From: a phage
Direction: 5' to 3' (one strand)
Sequence record: PZ445450.1
DNA length: 64,000 bases
Shown in pieces: positions 10,168 to 62,897 of the stretch (positions are counted from its first letter, which is position 1; every line of letters starts with the position of its first letter). The position numbers were made by a program, and so were the translations under genes. The notes beneath the pieces were generated by a model. It did not search any database. It was not told where the DNA came from and saw nothing but the letters and a program-made list of their open reading frames with translations.

Positions 10168-10197
10168 TATTTTTAAGTTATCAGGTTGCTAGAGATC

Positions 10198-10229
10198 AGG
10201 AGGATTTCTAAAATGGATTTCCTCCTTTT
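10198..10229 (+). terminator. rho-independent terminator
   Basis: aggagga ... tcctcct stem followed by ttt; ends plus-strand block 1. Confidence 0.5.
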
Positions 10230-10478
10230 GATATTTCACCGGACCAGATATTTTAAAATTCTTAGAAAATCAGAAAATGGATCGAAAACTAAAATGGATT
10301 TTTCAGAGTAGGCGCGACAAGCTGAATCGCTCATCCTATCGTTTGCACCATATTCTAGACCACCATTACAGATTTCCCGCACATGCTCACATCCTTCTAC
10401 TAGAACTTCCTCCACTTACCCTTGACTTTTTATGGTAATAGTCTAACCACTATCTTGAGGTTGCGGTACAGCTTTCCG

Positions 10479-10640
10479 GGTACTCGATCTGTTTTTCGTT
10501 TCAAAGATTGAATTTTCTGAAAATTTTTCTCGATAAATTTCTCAGTACTCGATCTGTTTTTCGTTTTCTGAATCGGATTTTCTGGAAATCGTTCCGGAGC
10601 TCGACCTGAAATTTTTGGGGACGAAATCGATTTTTCGTTT
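10479..10640. repeat. AT-rich tandem direct repeats
   Basis: gtactcgatctgtttttcgttt occurs identically at 10479 and 10548; flanking gattttctg(a/g)aaat and aaatggat(t) motifs recur 3-4 times between 10200 and 10680. Confidence 0.6.
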
Positions 10641-10772
10641 TCAGAAATGGATTTTTAAAATTTCTATATGGGAATATTTTATAGGATACTGTTTTATAGG
10701 AAATTGTTACGGAGGGTAATTAGCATGCTAATTAAATTTATTAAATGCGAGGAGTTCTCATTTAGAATTTTG

Positions 10773-10927
10773 AATGATAATCATTCTCGTTTGCAGAATA
10801 ACGGGCAGGCCCGGTGATTGTCTCCCGGCCCCTGTTGCCCCGGCTTGTTATTATAGTATCACACAGGACAAAGAAAGCAAGGACTTTTTGCATAAATTTT
10901 TAAATGATAATGATAACCGTTCTCATT
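10773..10927. promoter_or_regulatory. Fur-box-like palindromes next to a GC-rich hairpin element
   Basis: aatgataatcatt (10773-10785) and aatgataatgataaccgttctcatt (10903-10927) resemble the Fur box GATAATGATAATCATTATC; GC-rich elements at 10806-10846 and 10941-10980. Confidence 0.4.
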
Positions 10928-11149
10928 TTATGCAGCGCCCATCCCCGGTGGTTGTCTCCCCCGTCACCGGTGCCTGCCGTCCTTTCGATAGGTATATTGT
11001 GCCACCTGGCGGGGCCGCTGTCAACACTTTTCAAAAAATTTTTCTAACCTGATGCGCTAACCGTTGCAACCTGGCGGGGCCAGCCTGGCAGGGGGGTGAA
11101 AGCTTGCAAACCTGGTAGTAGGGTAAACAATTGAAGAGGAGGTACAAAA

Positions 11150-11323
11150 ATGAAAGGTAATGCTACTCACCTGGAGAATGTAGCGATTAATGACGCTGAG
11201 GCTATCGCCCTGGTTGAAAAGGCTATGGCGGGAGCGTTGGAACATAAAGAAGAGTACGAAAAAATGGTGGTTAACCTAGCGGGGGCGGCAGGTGGATTCT
11301 ATCATAAAAATAATTTAAAATAG
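11150..11323 (+). CDS. small hypothetical protein (57 aa)
   Basis: Strong RBS gaagaggagg 7 nt upstream; not in ORF track (under 60 aa). Confidence 0.45.
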   Translation: MKGNATHLENVAINDAEAIALVEKAMAGALEHKEEYEKMVVNLAGAAGGFYHKNNLK

Positions 11324-19918: not shown

Positions 19919-20110
19919 ATGACAGCAGAAGAAGTTAAAAAAGTACTGGCAGTACTACGTTACCATAATCATTGCAAGGTGAAGAATGATCCTGATTATC
20001 TCGATTCATCCCTTGAAGAGGATACACTGCAAGCCATAAGCAACATGCAAGAATTGCTTAAGCGTATGACAGAGAAAAACCGACCGGACTATATAGGCGA
20101 AAAAATATAA
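19919..20110 (+). CDS. hypothetical protein
   Basis: aggtgg RBS; 63-aa ORF. Confidence 0.45.
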   Translation: MTAEEVKKVLAVLRYHNHCKVKNDPDYLDSSLEEDTLQAISNMQELLKRMTEKNRPDYIGEKI

Positions 20111-20126
20111 TCTTTATAAACCATAA

Positions 20127-20156
20127 AACAGGGCTTGTAATGGTCCTGTTTTTTGT
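20127..20156 (+). terminator. rho-independent terminator
   Basis: aacagggc ... gtcctgtt stem followed by ttttttg. Confidence 0.55.
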
Positions 20157-20170
20157 TATACTTATTTCAC

Positions 20171-20217
20171 GGCAGGCACCTGGCGACGGGGGGAGACAAT
20201 CACCGGGGGTGCCTGTC
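20171..20217. repeat. GC-rich element, inverted copy of the element at 10941..10980
   Basis: Reverse complement reads ccccggtgattgtctcccccc...ggtgcctgcc, matching 10941-10980 and, partly, 10806-10846. Confidence 0.7.
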
Positions 20218-20239
20218 ATATAAAAAACTATAAAAACCG

Positions 20240-20268
20240 TTGACACCTGCCAGGCGGTGGGGTAACAT
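20240..20268 (+). promoter_or_regulatory. sigma70-like promoter (TTGACA-N17-TAACAT)
   Basis: -35 20240-20245, -10 20263-20268. Confidence 0.5.
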
Positions 20269-20322
20269 TTATCTTGAAGGGGCAAAAGTGCTCACACAAC
20301 AACCAGAAGAGAGGAAAACGCC

Positions 20323-20595
20323 ATGTTAAGCTGGATTAACCAAGAAGTCGAATCACGTTTTAATACTATTTAGGATCTCATCGAAAAAGAGGACGGAACA
20401 TCAAGCCCTTATCTCAATAATCTTGAATTCCATTTCGTGGAAGCGATGAACGCAGAACATGATCACGAAGGTGGTGCGGACGAGTTCGCTAAAGGGTATG
20501 GCTTCAACAATGCCAACGAAATGATCGAGGCGGTTGTACTCCAGGCTGAGGAAGATTATCAATTAAAAACGCTTGAATTCTGCCGCCGTAAGTAA
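20323..20595 (+). pseudogene. cassette gene interrupted by an in-frame amber (TAG) codon at 20371-20373
   Basis: Promoter, CA-rich leader and agaagagaggaaaacgcc RBS precede ATG 20323; codon 17 is TAG, after which the same frame stays open for 73 more codons to TAA at 20593-20595. Confidence 0.45.
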
Positions 20596-20657
20596 TAAGA
20601 TAATGACACGGGCCAAAAGGCCCACTAATCAGAACCGCACAAAAAGAGAGAAAGAAA

Positions 20658-20876
20658 ATGGCAACCCGTAAAATTAAAGTTGTTTGCATTGAATCAACTG
20701 GTAGCGCTTTTGTAGTTGGTCAGAAATATAATGCGGTTTTAATGGGTACGGATTGGAAGGTTAAAGGCCTTGATGGTTACGAATACGGCACTACTCGGGG
20801 ATTGCGTGGTCGAATCGGATACGTGAGTTTTGACAACAAAGAAAAATTTGTTTTCGATATTGTTGTGAGTAAATAG
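20658..20876 (+). CDS. hypothetical protein
   Basis: 5' hairpin gggcc-aaaa-ggccc, leader cacaaaaagagagaaagaaa then ATG. Confidence 0.5.
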   Translation: MATRKIKVVCIESTGSAFVVGQKYNAVLMGTDWKVKGLDGYEYGTTRGLRGRIGYVSFDNKEKFVFDIVVSK

Positions 20877-20932
20877 CAATTCATGCTATATTATCAACTA
20901 ATCAAAACGAACCGCATAAAGAGGAAAACATC

Positions 20933-21196
20933 ATGAAACGTCTTGACCAGCTCAAACTAGTTCAGTACATGGCTTACAGAATTCTTGAAGTCCAAAAAGG
21001 TAGCAAAAAAGAAGTTTGCGAGAAAGCGTACAAGATCTTTACTCGCAAAAAAGACGATTGGATGTTACGCCAGACCAAAAAAGCCGATATCTTGGGGTAC
21101 CTGGAAGAAGAGATCCGGCTTGAAGAACAAGAAGAGATCCGCCGTAGTGAGGCAGATTATCAGGCAGCTTGGGAAAACTGGATGAGCAACAAATAA
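20933..21196 (+). CDS. hypothetical charged protein
   Basis: aaagaggaaaac RBS. Confidence 0.5.
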   Translation: MKRLDQLKLVQYMAYRILEVQKGSKKEVCEKAYKIFTRKKDDWMLRQTKKADILGYLEEEIRLEEQEEIRRSEADYQAAWENWMSNK

Positions 21197-21262
21197 TACA
21201 ACAGGTTGCATGGTCAGGGGCGATAAAGCCCCTTGATCACATAAAAATTATGCTATCCCTTG

Positions 21263-21291
21263 TTGACAGGGATCGGCAGTTTTGCTATATT
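21263..21291 (+). promoter_or_regulatory. sigma70 promoter (TTGACA-N17-TATATT)
   Basis: -35 21263-21268, -10 21286-21291. Confidence 0.55.
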
Positions 21292-21340
21292 CTTTTTTGA
21301 AGGGAAGTTGTAAGAAAATTAACTAAGAGGTAAAAACACC

Positions 21341-21760
21341 ATGAACATTAAATCTGATAATCCGGCATATAGCTTTGATAACGCTTTTTGTCACGGTCCG
21401 GCGGCGAAAGGATTCGAAATCGATGGTAAACTAATTATTGTCAATGTTGACGGGGAAGAGGTTGCAGTATATCCGGTGGCAGACGTTAAAAGCCGTCTAC
21501 AATGCCGCATAGATGTTACCGCCTATCAGCTTGATCCGGTCCGGGTAGTTGCCCTGGTCCTGGAAGAAGAAATTAAAGCAATGCACCACAGCAACAAGTT
21601 TATTGGTGACGCTCAAGATAATATGCAGGTATGCCGCTATAAAGTTAATGAAGTGCTTAAAGAGTACGGCTATAAGGATTTAATGATCAAGCGCGATGAA
21701 AAATTCCGCTACCGTAACAACCTGGCAAATCGGATTTTTGAAATATACGAATCATTATAA
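21341..21760 (+). CDS. hypothetical protein
   Basis: aagaggtaaaaac RBS; last gene of plus-strand block. Confidence 0.55.
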   Translation: MNIKSDNPAYSFDNAFCHGPAAKGFEIDGKLIIVNVDGEEVAVYPVADVKSRLQCRIDVTAYQLDPVRVVALVLEEEIKAMHHSNKFIGDAQDNMQVCRYKVNEVLKEYGYKDLMIKRDEKFRYRNNLANRIFEIYESL

Positions 21761-21780
21761 TTTCTTAACTGAATTATCAA

Positions 21781-21806
21781 GGGGCTTAAAGGCCCCTTTC
21801 TTTTTG
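21781..21806 (+). terminator. rho-independent terminator
   Basis: ggggc-ttaaag-gcccc followed by tttctttttg. Confidence 0.7.
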
Positions 21807-22421
21807 TCTGCTCTTCTCCTACCATAAACGGCCCTACCTGGCAAGTGGAATAATTGACTAGCCATCAATCCCACATACTGTACAAATATACATGGAAAAT
21901 AACTATTGCATAATCTTTCATTGTGCGGTAGCAGGGCCATTTTTACCCGTTTTCTCTCCCAAAAGTGCACGTAATGCCGCTATTGCACAAATTTTAACCT
22001 GATGCACATATCCAATATCTTGTCAACAACTAAAAATCTTTATAAGTCATACACTTATACAGCATCGAAAGCGTGTTCTACGTGAAAAATCGAGTATAAC
22101 TATAGCCGCCAGATCTCAGAATTCACGTACGCACGCCATTCTATAGCCTGCAAAGTATTTATTCCAACCACAGAATAACGGAATAGTCAATACCTGCATA
22201 AAATAATTATTCGTGTAAACTGCATAACATAAATCAGCTCAGGTGTCAACATTTTTCGTAAACAGTCCGAAATTATCACGATGAGTTATCATAAACAGAG
22301 AAATCTTTAGTCGTCTAATGTTTACTGTACATTACTATACTGACTGGAATCATTAGATGACTAAGAAAAAGATAAGAAATAATTAATAATGTAATTGTTT
22401 TATCTGTAACAATAAGGCAAC

Positions 22422-22700
22422 CATGCAAACGAATGTCATGGCGCGACGGAGTCGCGACATAATATAAAAGCAGTAACCATCACCCCCGTGATAGTTTGTC
22501 TGCAATCTATTATTCAGATCATAGTTGCCTTGTATTTAGTTAATCATGACATAACAAGCAAGGCAACTATAGCTCTGATAATAGTTGCCCTGCTTTTATA
22601 TTATGTCATAGATTGTTAGCTTGTTAACTGTCAGCCTGTTGGCTGTTAGCTTGTCAATTATTAAATTGCTAATCTTTATCATGCAAACGAATGTCATGGC
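22422..22700. repeat. Composite repeat locus: 21-bp direct repeats flanking nested inverted repeats
   Basis: catgcaaacgaatgtcatggc at 22422-22442 and 22680-22700; 18-bp inverted repeat gacataatataaaagcag (22456-22473) / ctgcttttatattatgtc (22580-22597); inner palindromes cgcgac/gtcgcg and atagttgccttg/caaggcaactat. Confidence 0.8.
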
Positions 22701-22711
22701 TTATCATCTCT

Positions 22712-22767
22712 GTGTAAACAGTTTGGGCGTAAACTATTCAGGCGTAAACAGTCTATGCGTAAACAGT
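22712..22767. repeat. Four tandem iterons with 15-bp period (G[CT]GTAAAC[AT][AG]T)
   Basis: gtgtaaacagt, gcgtaaactat, gcgtaaacagt, gcgtaaacagt at 15-bp spacing; tgttagcttgt/tgtcagcctgt repeats sit just upstream and tgtgtc repeats downstream. Confidence 0.8.
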
Positions 22768-23141
22768 GAGATATGGAATAGTAACAGCCGTTATTGTGTC
22801 ATATTGTGTGACATTGTGTCCGGTGTCTGGTGTCCAGTGTGTCAGACAAGTTTTTCTCCTCTTTGTCAAGTGCTGCATGAAAAATTTACAAACTGGTATG
22901 GTAGCATTTTTGCGGCCCTGTTTACATTCAGTTGTGTATGTATAACCCTTGTTGTGTGGGCGTTTAGACGTCTAGACGGTTGGAAGTCTGCAGGTCAATA
23001 TCTAATCTATCGGCTGCTAACTATATCCCACACAAATAGTAAGAAATATAATTGTTATGTGCGTAAACAGTAACTCATGTTATCAATCCCTGTATGTATC
23101 GCCAGTGGTGCGCATAATGGGTATTATGTTAAATTGCCCGT

Positions 23142-23178
23142 AATGATAATGGTTCTCACAATGATAGGTATTCTCATT
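23142..23178. promoter_or_regulatory. Fur-box-like palindromic motifs
   Basis: aatgataatggttctcacaatgataggtattctcatt; same motif family as 10773 and 10903. Confidence 0.35.
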
Positions 23179-23420
23179 CATCCACACAAAATAGGTTGCA
23201 AATGTTGTGCCACTGTGTGAACGGCCTGGCCTATTAATTTCCCTCACTGCCTCGATATTTGAGAATTGTTATAAGAATGAGAAGTATTCCCATTTCGTCC
23301 GCCTGGCAGCACTCCTGTAGTCCTACAAGGACTCTAGCTGAAAGCTAGACCCTTCGGGCCTCCCTGCAGGTCAGGTCAAAATCGTGGTAGAATTGGGCTT
23401 ATTCAGATATTTCTGGCCGA

Positions 23421-23961
23421 CTCTTCAGGTCTGTGTGGGAAAAGCCAACCTCTCCGGCGGGGCAGGGGGAGGTCAATTAAAAAATTTACGTGGTGTATGA
23501 AGCGCTCTTCAGGTAAGGCAGGTATTATGGGATGAAACCCTCTTCAGGCAATGATATTTGTGGGTGTGATATTTGCTGGAAAGCCAGATATGACGGGACT
23601 CCCGGCGGGGATGGGGCAGTACAGACAGGGAAAATATGGGGATGTAGTTGGGTAAATTGATCAGACAGGTAGAGTATGGAATATGTTACAAGTATGTTAA
23701 ATATGGAGGGTGAATATCTGTAGGATTTGTGTGTAAAATCAAAGACTTAAGCGGTGTTGTGGTATTTTCTATAAATAATTCAAGTTTAATAGGTAATATT
23801 TGTCTCTATCCACTCTGTGTGGTAAACAGATTCAGATGATATTGGTTTGCAAGTGTATACATAATATACAAATTAAAGATACAAGAAACCCCCCTCCCCC
23901 TTCGGCTACCATTCACCTTTTCCTCTGACTGGTACTTAAACACTTATTCAGACTCTTCAGG
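23421..23961. repeat. Dispersed direct repeats of CTCTTCAGG with degenerate ~110-bp units
   Basis: CTCTTCAGG at 23421, 23505, 23540 and 23953; ctccggcggggcaggggg and ctcccggcggggatgggg recur; no supported ORF. Confidence 0.7.
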
Positions 23962-24311
23962 TTATCACCCATATATCATATGGCAGTGACTGGTGTCCTC
24001 CGGCCCCTCTTTCGTCACCCGTCCGCTTCGCCATGCTAATGCCATAGCCAAATGTTCGGTTGTTCACCCTGTTCACTCAGGTGTATCTCCATACCCCTTC
24101 AAACCGAAGAGAACAGAAAACCCGAATTACTCGGTAAAAGAAAAGAGAAGAACTTAATTTTATCATGATAGGCAAGAATGTCAAGGCATGACTGCTCACT
24201 AAACAAGCAAACAGTCATGTGTGGAAGGTAAGTGATTGTGGTGGTAGGAAATTTAGTTGAAAGATGTGTTATAGGTGCTCCCAGCACTTTAGCCGGGTAG
24301 CTAATTGTGTG

Positions 24312-24527
24312 TCAGTCCAGTGGTTCATCACCTACTTCACTGAAATCAATGTTCATGGTCTCCTCCCAACCATCAATCTCAGCACCAGAGTAGAGATCTT
24401 TAGGACTTACTCCCAAAGCCTCAGCAACAGAGTCTATATTTAACACCTCTGGCAGGTATGATTCATCGAATTCAAGGTAAATCAGGCCACGAGTGTTGTC
24501 AGCTCCACCAAATATTTCTATCTTCAT
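24312..24527 (-). CDS. hypothetical acidic protein
   Basis: cagaggagat RBS before internal ATG of track ORF 24312..24593; last gene of minus-strand block. Confidence 0.5.
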   Translation of the reverse strand: MKIEIFGGADNTRGLIYLEFDESYLPEVLNIDSVAEALGVSPKDLYSGAEIDGWEETMNIDFSEVGDEPLD

Positions 24528-24647
24528 GAAATCTCCTCTGGAAATGAGAATGTGAACAGGGTTTATATGTTCCAATGCACTGGAATTATGCACGTTTGCC
24601 TCTTCAGGCCATGCTTTAGCATGAGGAACCTGTGTGGGCTCGGTGCT

Positions 24648-24860
24648 TCATAGTCTACCACCTCTGAACTCTTCGTGCTCAGGCATAATAGAGAACCAGA
24701 TATCTACGATGTCTTCCCACGTTAGGTCATCAGCCTCAGGATCTACCTGGAGCGAAGATGGAGAATCTTCAGAATTGAAGTTTTCCTCTTGCACTGGCTC
24801 AGTCAAGGGACATATAGTCACTCCTTTGGATGTCTCTTCAGACGCATGTGTGGTAGTCAT
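24648..24860 (-). CDS. hypothetical acidic protein
   Basis: 70-aa ORF; start overlaps stop of upstream small ORF. Confidence 0.45.
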   Translation of the reverse strand: MTTTHASEETSKGVTICPLTEPVQEENFNSEDSPSSLQVDPEADDLTWEDIVDIWFSIMPEHEEFRGGRL

Positions 24861-24946
24861 GTTCCACCCGTGAGTATTCCGGCAACAGCCGCTATGGAAG
24901 TAATGATCATCAGGATCACCACTAAAACTTCAGACAATGTTCTCAT
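24857..24946 (-). CDS. small membrane peptide (29 aa)
   Basis: ggaga RBS; LVVILMIITSIAAVAGIL; its TGA overlaps the ATG of the downstream gene. Confidence 0.3.
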   Translation of the reverse strand: MRTLSEVLVVILMIITSIAAVAGILTGGT

Positions 24947-25226
24947 TGTGTATTCCATATTCTCCAAACTGTGTGTGGATACTATCACGGGAGCGGTAAT
25001 GTGTCAACAGCAACGCCGCGAGGGTTTGGTTAAAATCCGAGCGTATGGTGATTTGGGTCAAAACGGACGTGCGTTCTCGCTACGCTCGAAAGAGAGGTTT
25101 GTTTATAGACCGTCCTTAAACGCTCTGTAACGAGATTATCTGTCCAAGGTATGCAATCGTGCACCAGATAAAGAAAAGGACGCCATAGAGCGTCCTAGGT
25201 GTCTTAAATTTGATATTTTGCTATAC

Positions 25227-25532
25227 CTATGAGGGCTTATCAAGGTTGGAGTAGCTGAAAGGTGTCAAAAGGTGATTGTCAAAATCTCTCAAACTGTCCA
25301 GATCTTTTTCCTCGTCCTGACACCATCTGTGCCTACATTTATTGTTGTAGTGCATAGAATGCATAGCGTTCTGCAACTTAACAGGCACAAGTGATTCAGG
25401 AGTGGATAGTATTGTTGGGTATGCCAGAACCACCTCAAATAGTGGGAACACATCGAAACTAAAGTCTACCTCTGCAGAGGTTGATGGCATGTAGGAGTAT
25501 TTAGCCGCCTTTGTAGACATAATCCACCTCAC
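25227..25532 (-). CDS. hypothetical protein
   Basis: 101-aa ORF; 4-nt overlap with upstream gene. Confidence 0.45.
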   Translation of the reverse strand: MRWIMSTKAAKYSYMPSTSAEVDFSFDVFPLFEVVLAYPTILSTPESLVPVKLQNAMHSMHYNNKCRHRWCQDEEKDLDSLRDFDNHLLTPFSYSNLDKPS

Positions 25533-25855
25533 ACAGGTTTGATAATACCTTTACCGAATAATTCTTCGTATCTAATCTTATCCGGATCCCACTCCTGGAT
25601 AATTTCGAAGACAATATCCAACCCAGGGATAATCACTTCTCCAGTGTCAAGTTTGGCAAGAACAAAACCAGAAGGCTGAATGGTTTCCCAGTTGCGACGA
25701 TTGGAATAGAAGACCTCGAAAATATCACCGACCTTGATCTGTTGATCAAGATGTTCAAGATTCTCTTTCATATAGATGCAGCGGATTTTTCGTGCAGGCC
25801 ATAGACCGCCTGCATCACGTTCATTTAGTTCTTTTACAGTAATCGGTATACCCAT
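25529..25855 (-). CDS. hypothetical protein
   Basis: 108-aa ORF in operon. Confidence 0.5.
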   Translation of the reverse strand: MGIPITVKELNERDAGGLWPARKIRCIYMKENLEHLDQQIKVGDIFEVFYSNRRNWETIQPSGFVLAKLDTGEVIIPGLDIVFEIIQEWDPDKIRYEELFGKGIIKPV

Positions 25856-25907
25856 CTCAAATCTCCTTCATGGATAGTAAAAGAGGGGCTTGGGCCCCTC
25901 TTTGTCA

Positions 25908-26213
25908 TTATTCTACAGAGCGTTTGAACAGAATGTCTGCCTCAGACATGTGCTCAACCTCTTCTTCGATTTTAGCTCGACGTTTTTCAGCCTCATAGCG
26001 AATATCGAACTCGGTAGCCACCAGAGATTTGATGAATTTAGGAGAATACAGATGATCCTGCTTCTCAACAAGAATGATATCCTTGATGGCATCTTTCAGA
26101 TCTTTAATCTGAAGCTGGAGTTCCACCAGTTCTTCGATTGTTTTGCGAAGGCGATCACGTTCTGCAGTGTCAGAAGGAAGAGAGGTGAACAGTTCAACTT
26201 TAGATTTAGCCAT
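25908..26213 (-). CDS. hypothetical charged helical protein
   Basis: 101-aa ORF. Confidence 0.5.
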   Translation of the reverse strand: MAKSKVELFTSLPSDTAERDRLRKTIEELVELQLQIKDLKDAIKDIILVEKQDHLYSPKFIKSLVATEFDIRYEAEKRRAKIEEEVEHMSEADILFKRSVE

Positions 26214-59195: not shown

Positions 59196-59546
59196 ATGAA
59201 AGATGGGGATAAGCTGCTATATCTTAAAGTCCCCCTTGAAATACTGTCTATGTCAAAAGTTTTGAATGACACAACTGGAGAGGTTGTTGTTCTTGACTTA
59301 TATGACAAGATCGTATACTGCTACCTGCACAACTGGTACAAGCTTGGAGGAAATTCACGCTTCACACCCAGCACAAGGAAAATTGCAGCAGATGTTGGGA
59401 TAAAGAAAACAAAAGCAGCAGCGTGCGTTAAAACTTTAGAATGTGCAGGAGTGGTTGAAATATCCACACAAGGGAGAGGTAAAAGATGCACATTTTCCAA
59501 AGTTTTGCCACCAGAAGAGGTTATTCGAATGTCAACAACTGGTTAG
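59196..59546 (+). CDS. winged-helix/HTH DNA-binding protein (putative initiator or repressor)
   Basis: aaggagaatcaggag RBS; HTH-like TRKIAADVGIKKTKAAACVKTLECAGVVEI; immediately upstream of iterons. Confidence 0.5.
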   Translation: MKDGDKLLYLKVPLEILSMSKVLNDTTGEVVVLDLYDKIVYCYLHNWYKLGGNSRFTPSTRKIAADVGIKKTKAAACVKTLECAGVVEISTQGRGKRCTFSKVLPPEEVIRMSTTG

Positions 59547-59620
59547 ACCAGTAAAAACTTAAATATCTGTACTATAAGGATTCGTATGTTTTATGTCCAC
59601 CCCAGAGCAGAGGATAGTAA

Positions 59621-59705
59621 CTGTCCGTGATACGGACACTACTGTCCGTCACGCGGACACATCTGTCCGTAATACGGACACTAACTGTCCGTGATACGGA
59701 CACAT
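59621..59705. repeat. Four tandem palindromic iterons CTGTCCGT-N4-CGGACAC
   Basis: Units at 59621, 59642, 59663 and 59686 at 21-23 bp spacing; each contains inverted half-sites GTCCGT/ACGGAC. Confidence 0.85.
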
Positions 59706-59893
59706 AAAGAATATAACTAAAATAACTAAATAATAAAAAAATAAAAGATCTAGTACTTATGGTACTAAAGTGCATATACTTAACTTATGTAGAATATACT
59801 AGATCCTAAGTACCATGTTTTAAATTTATTACTTATTGTTGGTAGTGTCGGCCCTTCATTGGCACTCGCCTACGAGGGGCGAGATGCCGGGCC
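59706..59893. other. AT-rich tract with nested palindromes followed by a long GC-rich hairpin
   Basis: 59706-59845 is strongly AT-rich with agtac-ttatg-gtact and agatctagta/tactagatc inverted repeats; hairpin 59850-59893 with ggccc/gggcc outer stem and ggca+ctcgcc / ggcgag+tgcc inner stem. Confidence 0.6.
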
Positions 59894-62085: not shown

Positions 62086-62160
62086 GCCCTGTTAGCTTAG
62101 TGGATAAAGCAGCGGCCTTCTAAGCCGTTGACACTGGTTCGAGTCCAGTACGGGGTGCCA
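62086..62160 (+). tRNA. tRNA-Arg (anticodon UCU)
   Basis: Cloverleaf folded by hand: acceptor gccctgt/acggggt (one G-U), anticodon loop CUUCUAA, T-loop TTCGAGT, CCA encoded. Confidence 0.8.
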
Positions 62161-62164
62161 AATT

Positions 62165-62251
62165 GGGGAGTTATCCCGTAGAGGTAGCGGTGTAGACTGT
62201 AAATCTATTGTCATTGCGACTCGGGTGGTTCGACTCCACCACTCCCCACCA
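62165..62251 (+). tRNA. tRNA-Tyr (anticodon GUA), class II
   Basis: Acceptor ggggagt/actcccc, anticodon loop CUGUAAA, long variable arm, T-loop TTCGACT, CCA encoded. Confidence 0.75.
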
Positions 62252-62365
62252 AATTTATATTTTTAAATGCATAAATCATACAGATAATGACATTGATATT
62301 TATCGTCGTTTATACTAGTCACTAACTGCTCGAAAATCAGTGTCATTATCAGTGTAATTTATAAA

Positions 62366-62456
62366 GGAGGGTAGGGAGCAATGGTGCTCAAGCGGTCTTG
62401 AAAACCGTCCCGTTGAGGATGACTCGATGATGGTTCGATTCCATTACTCTCCGCCA
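62366..62456 (+). tRNA. tRNA-Ser (anticodon UGA), class II
   Basis: Acceptor ggagggt/actctcc, anticodon loop CUUGAAA, long variable arm, T-loop TTCGATT, CCA encoded. Confidence 0.75.
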
Positions 62457-62554
62457 CATTGTTGACCTTGTAATTAAGCGAAAGCCGGAAGCAGAACCGG
62501 ATTATCAAATGTTACAGTCGTCATCGCCGACTAGCCACATGGTCAACATATTGC

Positions 62555-62653
62555 GCTAGGTAAGCCCTTTGGCAAGGGCGAGGATTTTTAATCCTGAAAA
62601 TAGACGAGGTAGTCGTTGAATACATAGGTGGTTCGATTCCATCACCTAGCACC
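62555..62653 (+). tRNA. aberrant tRNA-like gene (candidate Lys-UUU-like anticodon loop; ~30-nt insertion before T-arm)
   Basis: Acceptor gctaggt/acctagc, D-arm gccc-tttggcaa-gggc, T-arm ggtgg-ttcgatt-ccatc. Anticodon region aggatttttaatcct gives UUUUUAA loop only with a 4-bp stem; ~30 nt lie between it and the T-arm; 3' CC only. Confidence 0.45.
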
Positions 62654-62657
62654 TTTT

Positions 62658-62733
62658 GCTGATGTAGCACAATTGGCAGTGCAATTGATTTGTAATCAAT
62701 AGGTTGCAGGTTCAAGTCCTGCCATCAGCACCA
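62658..62733 (+). tRNA. tRNA-Thr (anticodon UGU)
   Basis: Acceptor gctgatg/catcagc, D-stem gcac/gtgc, anticodon loop UUUGUAA, T-loop TTCAAGT, CCA encoded. Confidence 0.8.
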
Positions 62734-62734
62734 T

Positions 62735-62809
62735 GGCCCTGTAGCTGGAAGGTTCAAGCAAGCGACTCATAATCGCCAGACGGTGGTTCAATTCCACCCA
62801 GGGCCACCA
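62735..62809 (+). tRNA. tRNA-Met (anticodon CAU; elongator Met or Ile2 lysidine type)
   Basis: Acceptor ggccctg/cagggcc with G1-C72, anticodon loop CUCAUAA, T-loop TTCAATT, CCA encoded. Confidence 0.7.
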
Positions 62810-62820
62810 AATAATAAATA

Positions 62821-62897
62821 CTCCGCGTAGCTCAGCTTGGTAGAGCGCCTGATTTGGGATCAGGAGGTCGAGTGTTCGAATCACTCCGTGGAGACCA
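62821..62897 (+). tRNA. tRNA-Pro (anticodon UGG)
   Basis: C1-G72 acceptor typical of tRNA-Pro, anticodon loop UUUGGGA, T-loop TTCGAAT, CCA encoded. Confidence 0.8.

Follow-up and report, generated by a model that had tools for sequence, protein, structure and literature searches.

The DNA analysed here, a stretch of 64,000 nucleotides (sequence record PZ445450.1; hereafter the window), belongs to a Vequintavirus, an rV5-like E. coli myophage, and our subject is the 2.5-kb non-coding gap at 21800-24320, which 121 phage records, nearly all of them Vequintavirus, match at 90-96% identity. On its left the gap is bordered by a plus-strand gene encoding 139 amino acids (21341-21760) and on its right by the last minus-strand gene (24312-24527), and the annotation of RudolfGeigy, a BASEL phage, places no gene between the homologues of these two. 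The plus-strand block is closed by a terminator-like hairpin with a T-run (21779-21806, plus strand; hairpin 21779-21798, 8-bp stem with five GC pairs, TCTTTTTGTC tail), and a comparable hairpin lies 3' of the homologous gene in phAPEC8. From left to right there follow a left arm (21807-22421, about 92% mean identity among relatives, with a solitary GTAAACAG site at 22258); a core rich in repeats and palindromes, which a first-pass annotation had flagged at 22381-22900 as typical of replication origins, packaging sites or genome termini; a segment homologous to the direct terminal repeat (DTR) of 459 bp that close relatives carry (22845-23303); the right DTR boundary with a second hypervariable indel zone (23304-23360); and a right arm (23361-24311).

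The absence of any supported open reading frame (ORF) from these 2.5 kb, which the first-pass annotation had also noted, was borne out when we aligned the gap with those of 13 relatives (14 genomes including the window). The ORFs of the core are not preserved in the relatives (the 150-amino-acid ORF at 22621-23073 is intact in none of the 13), and searches with the ORFs of the gap and their neighbours against PHROG and Pfam returned no hits, on which grounds coding potential of the core was rejected. A permissive Rfam scan of 20000-26000 gave a chance miRNA match only, and a tRNA scan found nothing in the gap. The rV5 genome paper drew the stretch as a “non-coding” box in a genome believed to be circularly permuted, and a later annotation guide labels it a “wasteland” (PMC3606486; PMC8785237).

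The segment at 22845-23303, the sole copy in the window, is 97% identical to the LL12 repeat and would represent the DTR in single, collapsed form. For LL12 a non-permuted redundancy of 459 bp has been published (PMC6658697), and for EdH4 and HdK5 redundancies of 458 bp (PMC6563267). Both edges of the element can be placed to the base: with a slash marking the boundary, the left one reads TGTCA/GACAAGTTTTTCTCC and the right one CGTCCGCC/TGGCAGCAC, each the same as in EdH4 and Gotham and each kept in all 14 genomes. The records of EdH4, HdK5, Gotham, four bov phages (bov10K2 among them) and YN3, which come from several independent groups, start exactly at the base homologous to 23303, and the record of ECP2303 stops at the DTR, to which its final 459 bases align. 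In EdH4 and Gotham the 459-bp element stands at both ends of the record, and Gotham annotates it as a repeat_region at 1-459; for close relatives, then, the same sequence is found at both ends of the virion DNA. We therefore consider it very probable that the DTR of this phage maps to 22845-23303, a placement that rests on homology at the level of sequence. By the same token, the suggestion of genome termini was right for the locus but not for the flagged core, which overlaps the DTR by its last 56 bp only and which, if the mapping holds, represents the DNA just outside one DTR boundary. The terminase gene itself we take, going by rV5 gene numbering, to lie outside the 64-kb window.

The DTR shows 95% mean identity and is nearly free of indels (its first 50-bp bin has no more than 0.1 inserted base per genome), the arms range from about 90 to 98% mean identity, and DTR and arms together are as conserved as the flanking genes. 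Two hypervariable zones lie just outside the two DTR boundaries, at 22611-22860 and 23311-23360; the second begins about 10 bp beyond the right boundary and contains alternative hairpin modules that are present or absent by lineage. On the left, the 115-211 bp beside the DTR carry in all 14 genomes two arrays in the same orientation, GTRAAYAGT units first and TGTGTCA-type units second. The former recur with a period of 15-16 bp, about 3 to 12 units per genome, and vary in number, spacing and sequence; the latter are (T/C)ATTGTGTCA or AGTATGTCA units with a period of 10-11 bp, the last copy of which ends at the 22844/22845 boundary, so that the array directly abuts GACAAGTTTTT via TGTCA in 14 of 14 genomes. 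Nucleotide identity across the arrays is only 13%, which, taken with their constant plan, indicates fast turnover of the arrays without loss of motif, order, orientation or abutment.

In the window the first of these arrays is the iteron array at 22711-22770 (plus strand), four units in a single orientation with a 15-bp period and the core GTAAACAGT, two of them exactly GCGTAAACAGT, one GTGTAAACAGT and one GCGTAAACTAT; the four units conform to GYGTAAACWRT, and by period the array can be delimited to 22714-22767, or 3.6 copies. The second is the TGTGTC-type array at 22788-22844 (plus strand), made of (T/C)ATTGTGTCA-type units with a 7-11-bp period and ending at the DTR boundary GTGTCA/GACAAG. 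All the repeats on which the first-pass annotation relied are indeed present and non-random, with two reservations. TGTGTC forms a local array at 22792-22840 with periods of 10 and 7, but it is not enriched window-wide (28 occurrences against 34.7 expected). Likewise, the two TGTTAGCTTGT copies do exist, within an TAGCTTGT-period tract at 22609-22654 (plus strand), but this tract is lineage-specific filler, common only to the window and A142; in the other 12 of the 13 relatives a GC hairpin module takes its place or it has been deleted. A142 is, incidentally, the one record that we inspected among 19 labelled “Campylobacter phage” (MG0656xx) that are 93-97% identical to the locus; it is UNVERIFIED and unannotated, and these records are probably mislabelled or contaminant genomes.

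The motif GTAAACAG extends beyond the array: it has eight matches in the window against 2.25 expected in 64 kb, and seven of the eight lie within 22258-23829, including two inside the DTR (22918, minus strand; 23063, plus strand). Its solitary copies, in the DTR and in both arms, keep their core while the neighbouring bases vary. The arrays show no single-strand structure (z = -0.47), which fits recognition as duplex.

Such hypervariability could also mean that the arrays are functionless by-products of slippage or recombination, the genome ends being recombinogenic, and are tolerated as junk. The indel-rich character of both the arrays and the zone right of the DTR would suit this explanation, as would the lineage-specific TGTTAGCTTGT tract and the field's own “wasteland” label. 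It does not account, however, for the preservation of motif cores, order, orientation and boundary abutment in 14 of 14 genomes, for the footprint-like conservation of the solitary motif copies, or for the conservation of the remainder of the gap, which equals that of the genes beside it. It is further at odds with an experimental result: in a saturating mariner library of Bas54, no transposon insertion was recovered in the homologous intergenic region (bioRxiv 10.1101/2025.11.20.689424). Bas54 is MaxBurger, its gap is homologous to window positions 21761-24311 with the DTR at 93831-94289, and we counted 224 TA sites in its 2512 bp. We accordingly see only a slim prospect that the arrays are junk.

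The same intolerance of insertions would be expected of a replication origin, in which a phage initiator would occupy the GTAAACAGT repeats, unwinding would take place in the AT-rich stretch at 22350-22420 and the palindromes would assist priming. At least four regularly spaced repeats in one orientation are present, where three or more may be asked of an origin; the most AT-rich stretch of the gap lies at 22350-22420 (15-20% GC, the lowest 40-bp windows at 15%), about 300 bp from the iterons and on the far side of the palindromes; cumulative GC skew peaks at the gap; and the phage has a T7-like replisome with an unassigned origin location (PMC3606486), no assigned origin having been found in the literature for the rV5-like group. 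Nevertheless, the switch in skew coincides with the switch in coding strand, as the rV5 authors themselves remarked for this locus (PMC3606486), and the skew is thus confounded. Nor did a DnaA-box scan reveal a cluster, the gap containing a single site with one mismatch, and the arrays neither contain nor adjoin a conserved ORF or an initiator gene. The number, spacing and sequence of the iterons differ widely among phages that are 90-96% identical, unlike the situation at single-initiator origins; their period of 15-16 bp is not helically phased; and the arrays adjoin the terminase cut position. Of the functions offered by the first-pass annotation, the origin thus finds little specific support, and we consider it unlikely.

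Further out from the DTR lies a palindrome cluster (22443-22610), which contrasts with the arrays in that it hardly varies; 117 of 119 DTR-carrying records have it. It is built of a GC hairpin, CGCGAC-GGA-GTCGCG, and an 18-nt perfect inverted repeat (22456-22473 and 22590-22607, with 116 nt between the arms), the latter enclosing the hairpin 22475-22496 together with two nested inverted repeats of 12-15 nt (22521-22532 with 22559-22570, and 22556-22570 with 22581-22595). Folded as single-stranded DNA, the segment 22415-22630 has an energy of -48.6 kcal/mol (z = -9.2), and among 1000 first-order Markov simulations of 520 bp an inverted repeat of at least 18 nt arose in four. None of the same simulations produced a direct repeat of at least 21 nt, such as the exact pair CATGCAAACGAATGTCATGGC that stands 258 bp apart at 22422-22442 and 22680-22700 (both plus strand). 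These two copies are the endpoints of a precise 258-bp deletion in FV3 (NC_019517) that removes the palindrome cluster, the only confirmed loss of it.

A cluster of this kind invites an explanation in terms of transcription, namely that the palindromes are bidirectional terminators and the repeats regulator sites, which together stop transcription and shield the concatemer junction from the converging blocks. There are indeed terminator-like hairpins at 21779-21798 (plus strand), 22496 to 22475 (minus strand, with a T-run) and 22824-22848 (plus strand), the annotation of Murica places a terminator in the palindrome segment, and a promoter-bearing cassette is not tolerated anywhere in the Bas54 gap, which fits a need for transcriptional silence. 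The rV5 authors, too, expected bidirectional terminators between genes 163 and 164, although they found none (PMC3606486). On the other hand, the 5' arm of the hairpin at 22824-22848 is not conserved, for which reason we rejected it both as a conserved terminator and as a cut-site hairpin; the arrays are unstructured; terminators require far less than 2.5 kb; and FV3 manages without the palindrome cluster. In Phapecoctavirus, moreover, the equivalent DTR-bearing gap lies between co-directional genes, so the convergence of two transcription blocks, by which the first-pass annotation had framed the locus, is not essential to it. As an account of the whole gap, transcriptional insulation therefore strikes us as improbable.

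Taken together, these observations lead us to propose, at about even confidence, that the gap is the T7-type concatemer-junction and packaging region of Vequintavirus. In this model a single junction copy of the DTR would be cut at both boundaries and duplicated during packaging, such that the 459-bp repeat comes to be present at both ends of the virion DNA. The two arrays leading up to the 22844/22845 cut would be putative duplex binding sites that position the packaging or terminase machinery, a role comparable to that of the repeat elements beside cos or pac cut sites; for the arrays taken by themselves, we place a role in packaging at, or somewhat short of, an even chance. The palindrome cluster, 240-400 bp further out, would be an accessory element that is not strictly required and that might act either as a hairpin or cruciform former or as a bidirectional transcription stop keeping the junction quiet. 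The proposal presumes that this phage packages as its relatives do, that the arrays bind protein and that this protein belongs to the packaging machinery.

Several considerations weigh against this proposal. A 2026 paper inferred headful packaging with partial permutation, by PhageTerm, for a cocktail-assembled Vequintavirus (PMC13211470), a call that conflicts with the fixed 458-459-bp DTR reported in the other publications, and we infer fixed ends for the phage studied here by homology with its relatives. The terminase small subunit is only a candidate for the partner of the arrays, and a scan for IHF sites found none in the core. FV3, which lacks the palindrome cluster, argues that the cluster is not essential, unless its sequence is an artefact; the deletion may be either a natural test of dispensability or a product of cloning or sequencing. 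The insertion intolerance of Bas54 could equally reflect an origin or harm from transcription of the cassette. Finally, neither GTAAACAG nor TGTGTCA arrays were found in the terminus gaps of Phapecoctavirus or Mydovirus and they are thus genus-specific, and the parallel with T7 to which we return below is architectural only, since no function of the arrays beside the T7 DTR is, as far as we know, firmly established.

The DTR contains a further class of sites. Three 17-bp palindromic, operator-like sequences of the form ATGAKAA-N3-TTMTCAT lie inside it, at 23143-23159, 23161-23177 and 23277-23293, and there are 10 in the window against 1.57 expected, another three of them in the intergenic region at 10.7-10.9 kb (10745-10926). 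Their half-sites are conserved and the 3-nt spacer is variable. They are enriched in other terminus gaps as well (five in that of KPP-1 against 0.04 expected, four in that of phAPEC8 against 0.29 expected), and they share the geometry of the 7-1-7 Fur box of E. coli; compared with the 19-bp consensus for Fur, the highest-scoring sites match at 16/19 positions (at 10906) and 15/19 (at 10770). One could imagine that large myoviruses with DTRs have in this gap an essential module, acting in cis and so far uncharacterised: helically phased arrays would set the terminase cut, the conserved palindrome would form a hairpin and prime or delimit DTR duplication, and through the Fur-box-like sites a host factor, for instance Fur, would be linked to the processing of ends or to early transcription. 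A hairpin that primes or delimits duplication of the terminal repeat has been proposed for T7. We regard this composite function as quite improbable.

The 10.7-10.9 kb sites belong to a second non-coding stretch of about 1 kb (10170-11150), situated within the plus-strand block and showing no GC skew, which, besides the Fur-box-like sites, carries a 22-nt direct repeat (GTACTCGATCTGTTTTTCGTTT, two copies), repeats of the GGATTTTC type and an inverted repeat of 18 nt. Elsewhere in the window, a 22-nt exact direct repeat occurs at 59281-59800, not far from where the strands switch divergently at about 58 kb, and within a cluster of seven tRNA genes (62086-62897) ARAGORN predicts at 62555-62653 a tRNA-like gene of 99 nt, of undetermined identity, with a four-base anticodon (atcc).

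The right arm (23361-24311) holds four copies of CTCTTCAGG (23421-23961), a GTAAACAG site at 23822 and, at 23901-24311, the most conserved part of the gap, whose 98% mean identity exceeds that of the adjacent genes. This last segment includes a minus-strand promoter that is strong and sigma-70-like (24184 to 24157; 11 of 12 matches, with TG), a short terminator-like hairpin downstream of it (24134 to 24122) and a 62-amino-acid ORF (24099-24287, minus strand) that is intact in 11 of 13 relatives and has no PHROG hit; RNA folding of the conserved right arm gave z = -1.7, which is not significant. The four CTCTTCAGG copies fall within 540 bp, all on the plus strand, and the window has eight against 0.4 expected. 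The idea that they represent a promoter motif was dropped, since of the four copies that lie elsewhere in the window three encode Pro-Glu-Glu in frame within genes; the fourth (at 24600) is intergenic, just upstream of ORF163.

As to what is new, the termini of close relatives have been published before, experiment has already pointed to the importance of the gap, and the DTR publications (PMC6658697, PMC6563267, PMC9862379) give the length and location of the repeat only, the flanking arrays, palindrome cluster and operator-like sites being undescribed there. What appears to be new within the literature that we consulted is the base-level placement of the repeats at the DTR boundary, together with the plan of two arrays, the deletion in FV3 and the parallel with T7. 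No new kind of biology is revealed. Still, rV5-like phages are among the most often isolated coliphages and are used in therapy cocktails, the “wasteland” has been on record since 2013, and the insertion intolerance reported in 2025 came without an explanation. A DTR placed to the single base beside two fast-evolving arrays that are conserved in kind, with a conserved palindrome beyond them, provides a testable model of why the gap is essential, and it shows annotators where to open rV5-like genomes.

It remains to compare the locus with systems already described. With the published DTRs of LL12, EdH4, HdK5 and Gotham the window shares the 459-bp element, its boundary sequences, the gap and the flanking genes; KPP-1 and Mt1B1_P17 are further relatives with DTRs. 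In the Phapecoctavirus Mt1B1_P17 an exact 328-bp repeat stands at both ends and lies in a 1.5-kb gap beside a homologue of the 139-amino-acid gene, and a repeat of 328 bp has also been published for Schickermooser (PMC6563267). For KPP-1 (Mydovirus, Vequintavirinae), a 514-bp DTR of the PhageTerm class T7-type has been described (PMC9862379), which by our mapping sits in a convergent gap. Both phAPEC8 and KPP-1 carry a large inverted repeat that encloses hairpins 200-310 bp outside one DTR boundary. At the level of sequence the relationship is looser: the DTRs of Vequintavirus and Phapecoctavirus align with a global score of 14.5 against 10.0 +/- 5.8 for shuffles, which is not significant, and local hits are weak, so we claim organisational equivalence only. 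Similarity between the window and KPP-1 DNA is suggestive, consisting of weak colinear hits (E 1e-4 to 0.014) with one block just inside the left boundary. Both DTR boundaries share a TGNCA motif, but we set this aside as probably fortuitous, since Phapecoctavirus lacks it. The 139-amino-acid gene is rV5 ORF164 (phrog_12277, function unknown); it is accessory, detected in 7 of the 13 aligned Vequintavirus loci, and its Phapecoctavirus homologue, with about 88% protein identity, there too borders the DTR-bearing gap, which suggests exchange between the two genera.

Iteron origins such as lambda ori and plasmid oriV resemble the window in having tandem direct repeats with an AT-rich stretch nearby; they differ in that the window shows no initiator gene, no DnaA boxes, a period of 15-16 bp and hypervariable iterons. 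The injection stop signal (iss) of T5 is, like our gap, a large untranslated region rich in repeats and palindromes and tied to the terminal repeat, and one may ask whether the cluster similarly pauses or regulates genome entry, as it lies within 500-900 bp of the genome end. The T5-type region, however, is situated inside a 10-kb repeat and contains eight DnaA boxes in a fixed, ordered arrangement, whereas the cluster described here falls outside a very short repeat of 459 bp and the gap has no such set of boxes. Two-step transfer is, in addition, not known for rV5-like phages, and there are no genes between the end and the cluster to serve as pre-early genes. An ejection-control function is therefore highly improbable.

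The terminase recognition repeats that lie beside the cut site in other phages, the R sites of lambda cosB and the pacL and pacR boxes of SPP1, offer another analogy. In these systems, as in the window, short repeats in the same orientation lie no further than about 150 bp from a fixed cleavage position, some of them with a period of one helical turn, and the arrays analysed here do end directly at the presumed cleavage position, 22844/22845, in 14 of 14 genomes. The ends themselves are of another type, being duplicated DTR ends rather than cohesive or headful ones, and the IHF site is missing from the core; given the non-permuted DTRs of its relatives, the site would act like, but would not be, a cos or a headful pac.

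The closest architectural counterpart is T7 (NC_001604), where the DTR occupies 1-160 and is followed at 174-340 by an array of CCTAAAG with a 13-bp period; the CCTAAAG core recurs within the DTR and before its right-hand copy. The two do not resemble each other in sequence; the phage of the window is a 137-kb myovirus without an RNA polymerase of its own, it has two types of array (periods of 15-16 and about 10 bp) where T7 has one, and a large conserved palindrome cluster lies beyond them. What T7 and the window have in common is nonetheless a specific arrangement: a short, exact DTR (160 and 459 bp, respectively) that exists in one copy at the concatemer junction, an array of short repeats in a single orientation that begins within tens of base pairs of it, and additional copies of the repeat core both inside the DTR and on its other side.

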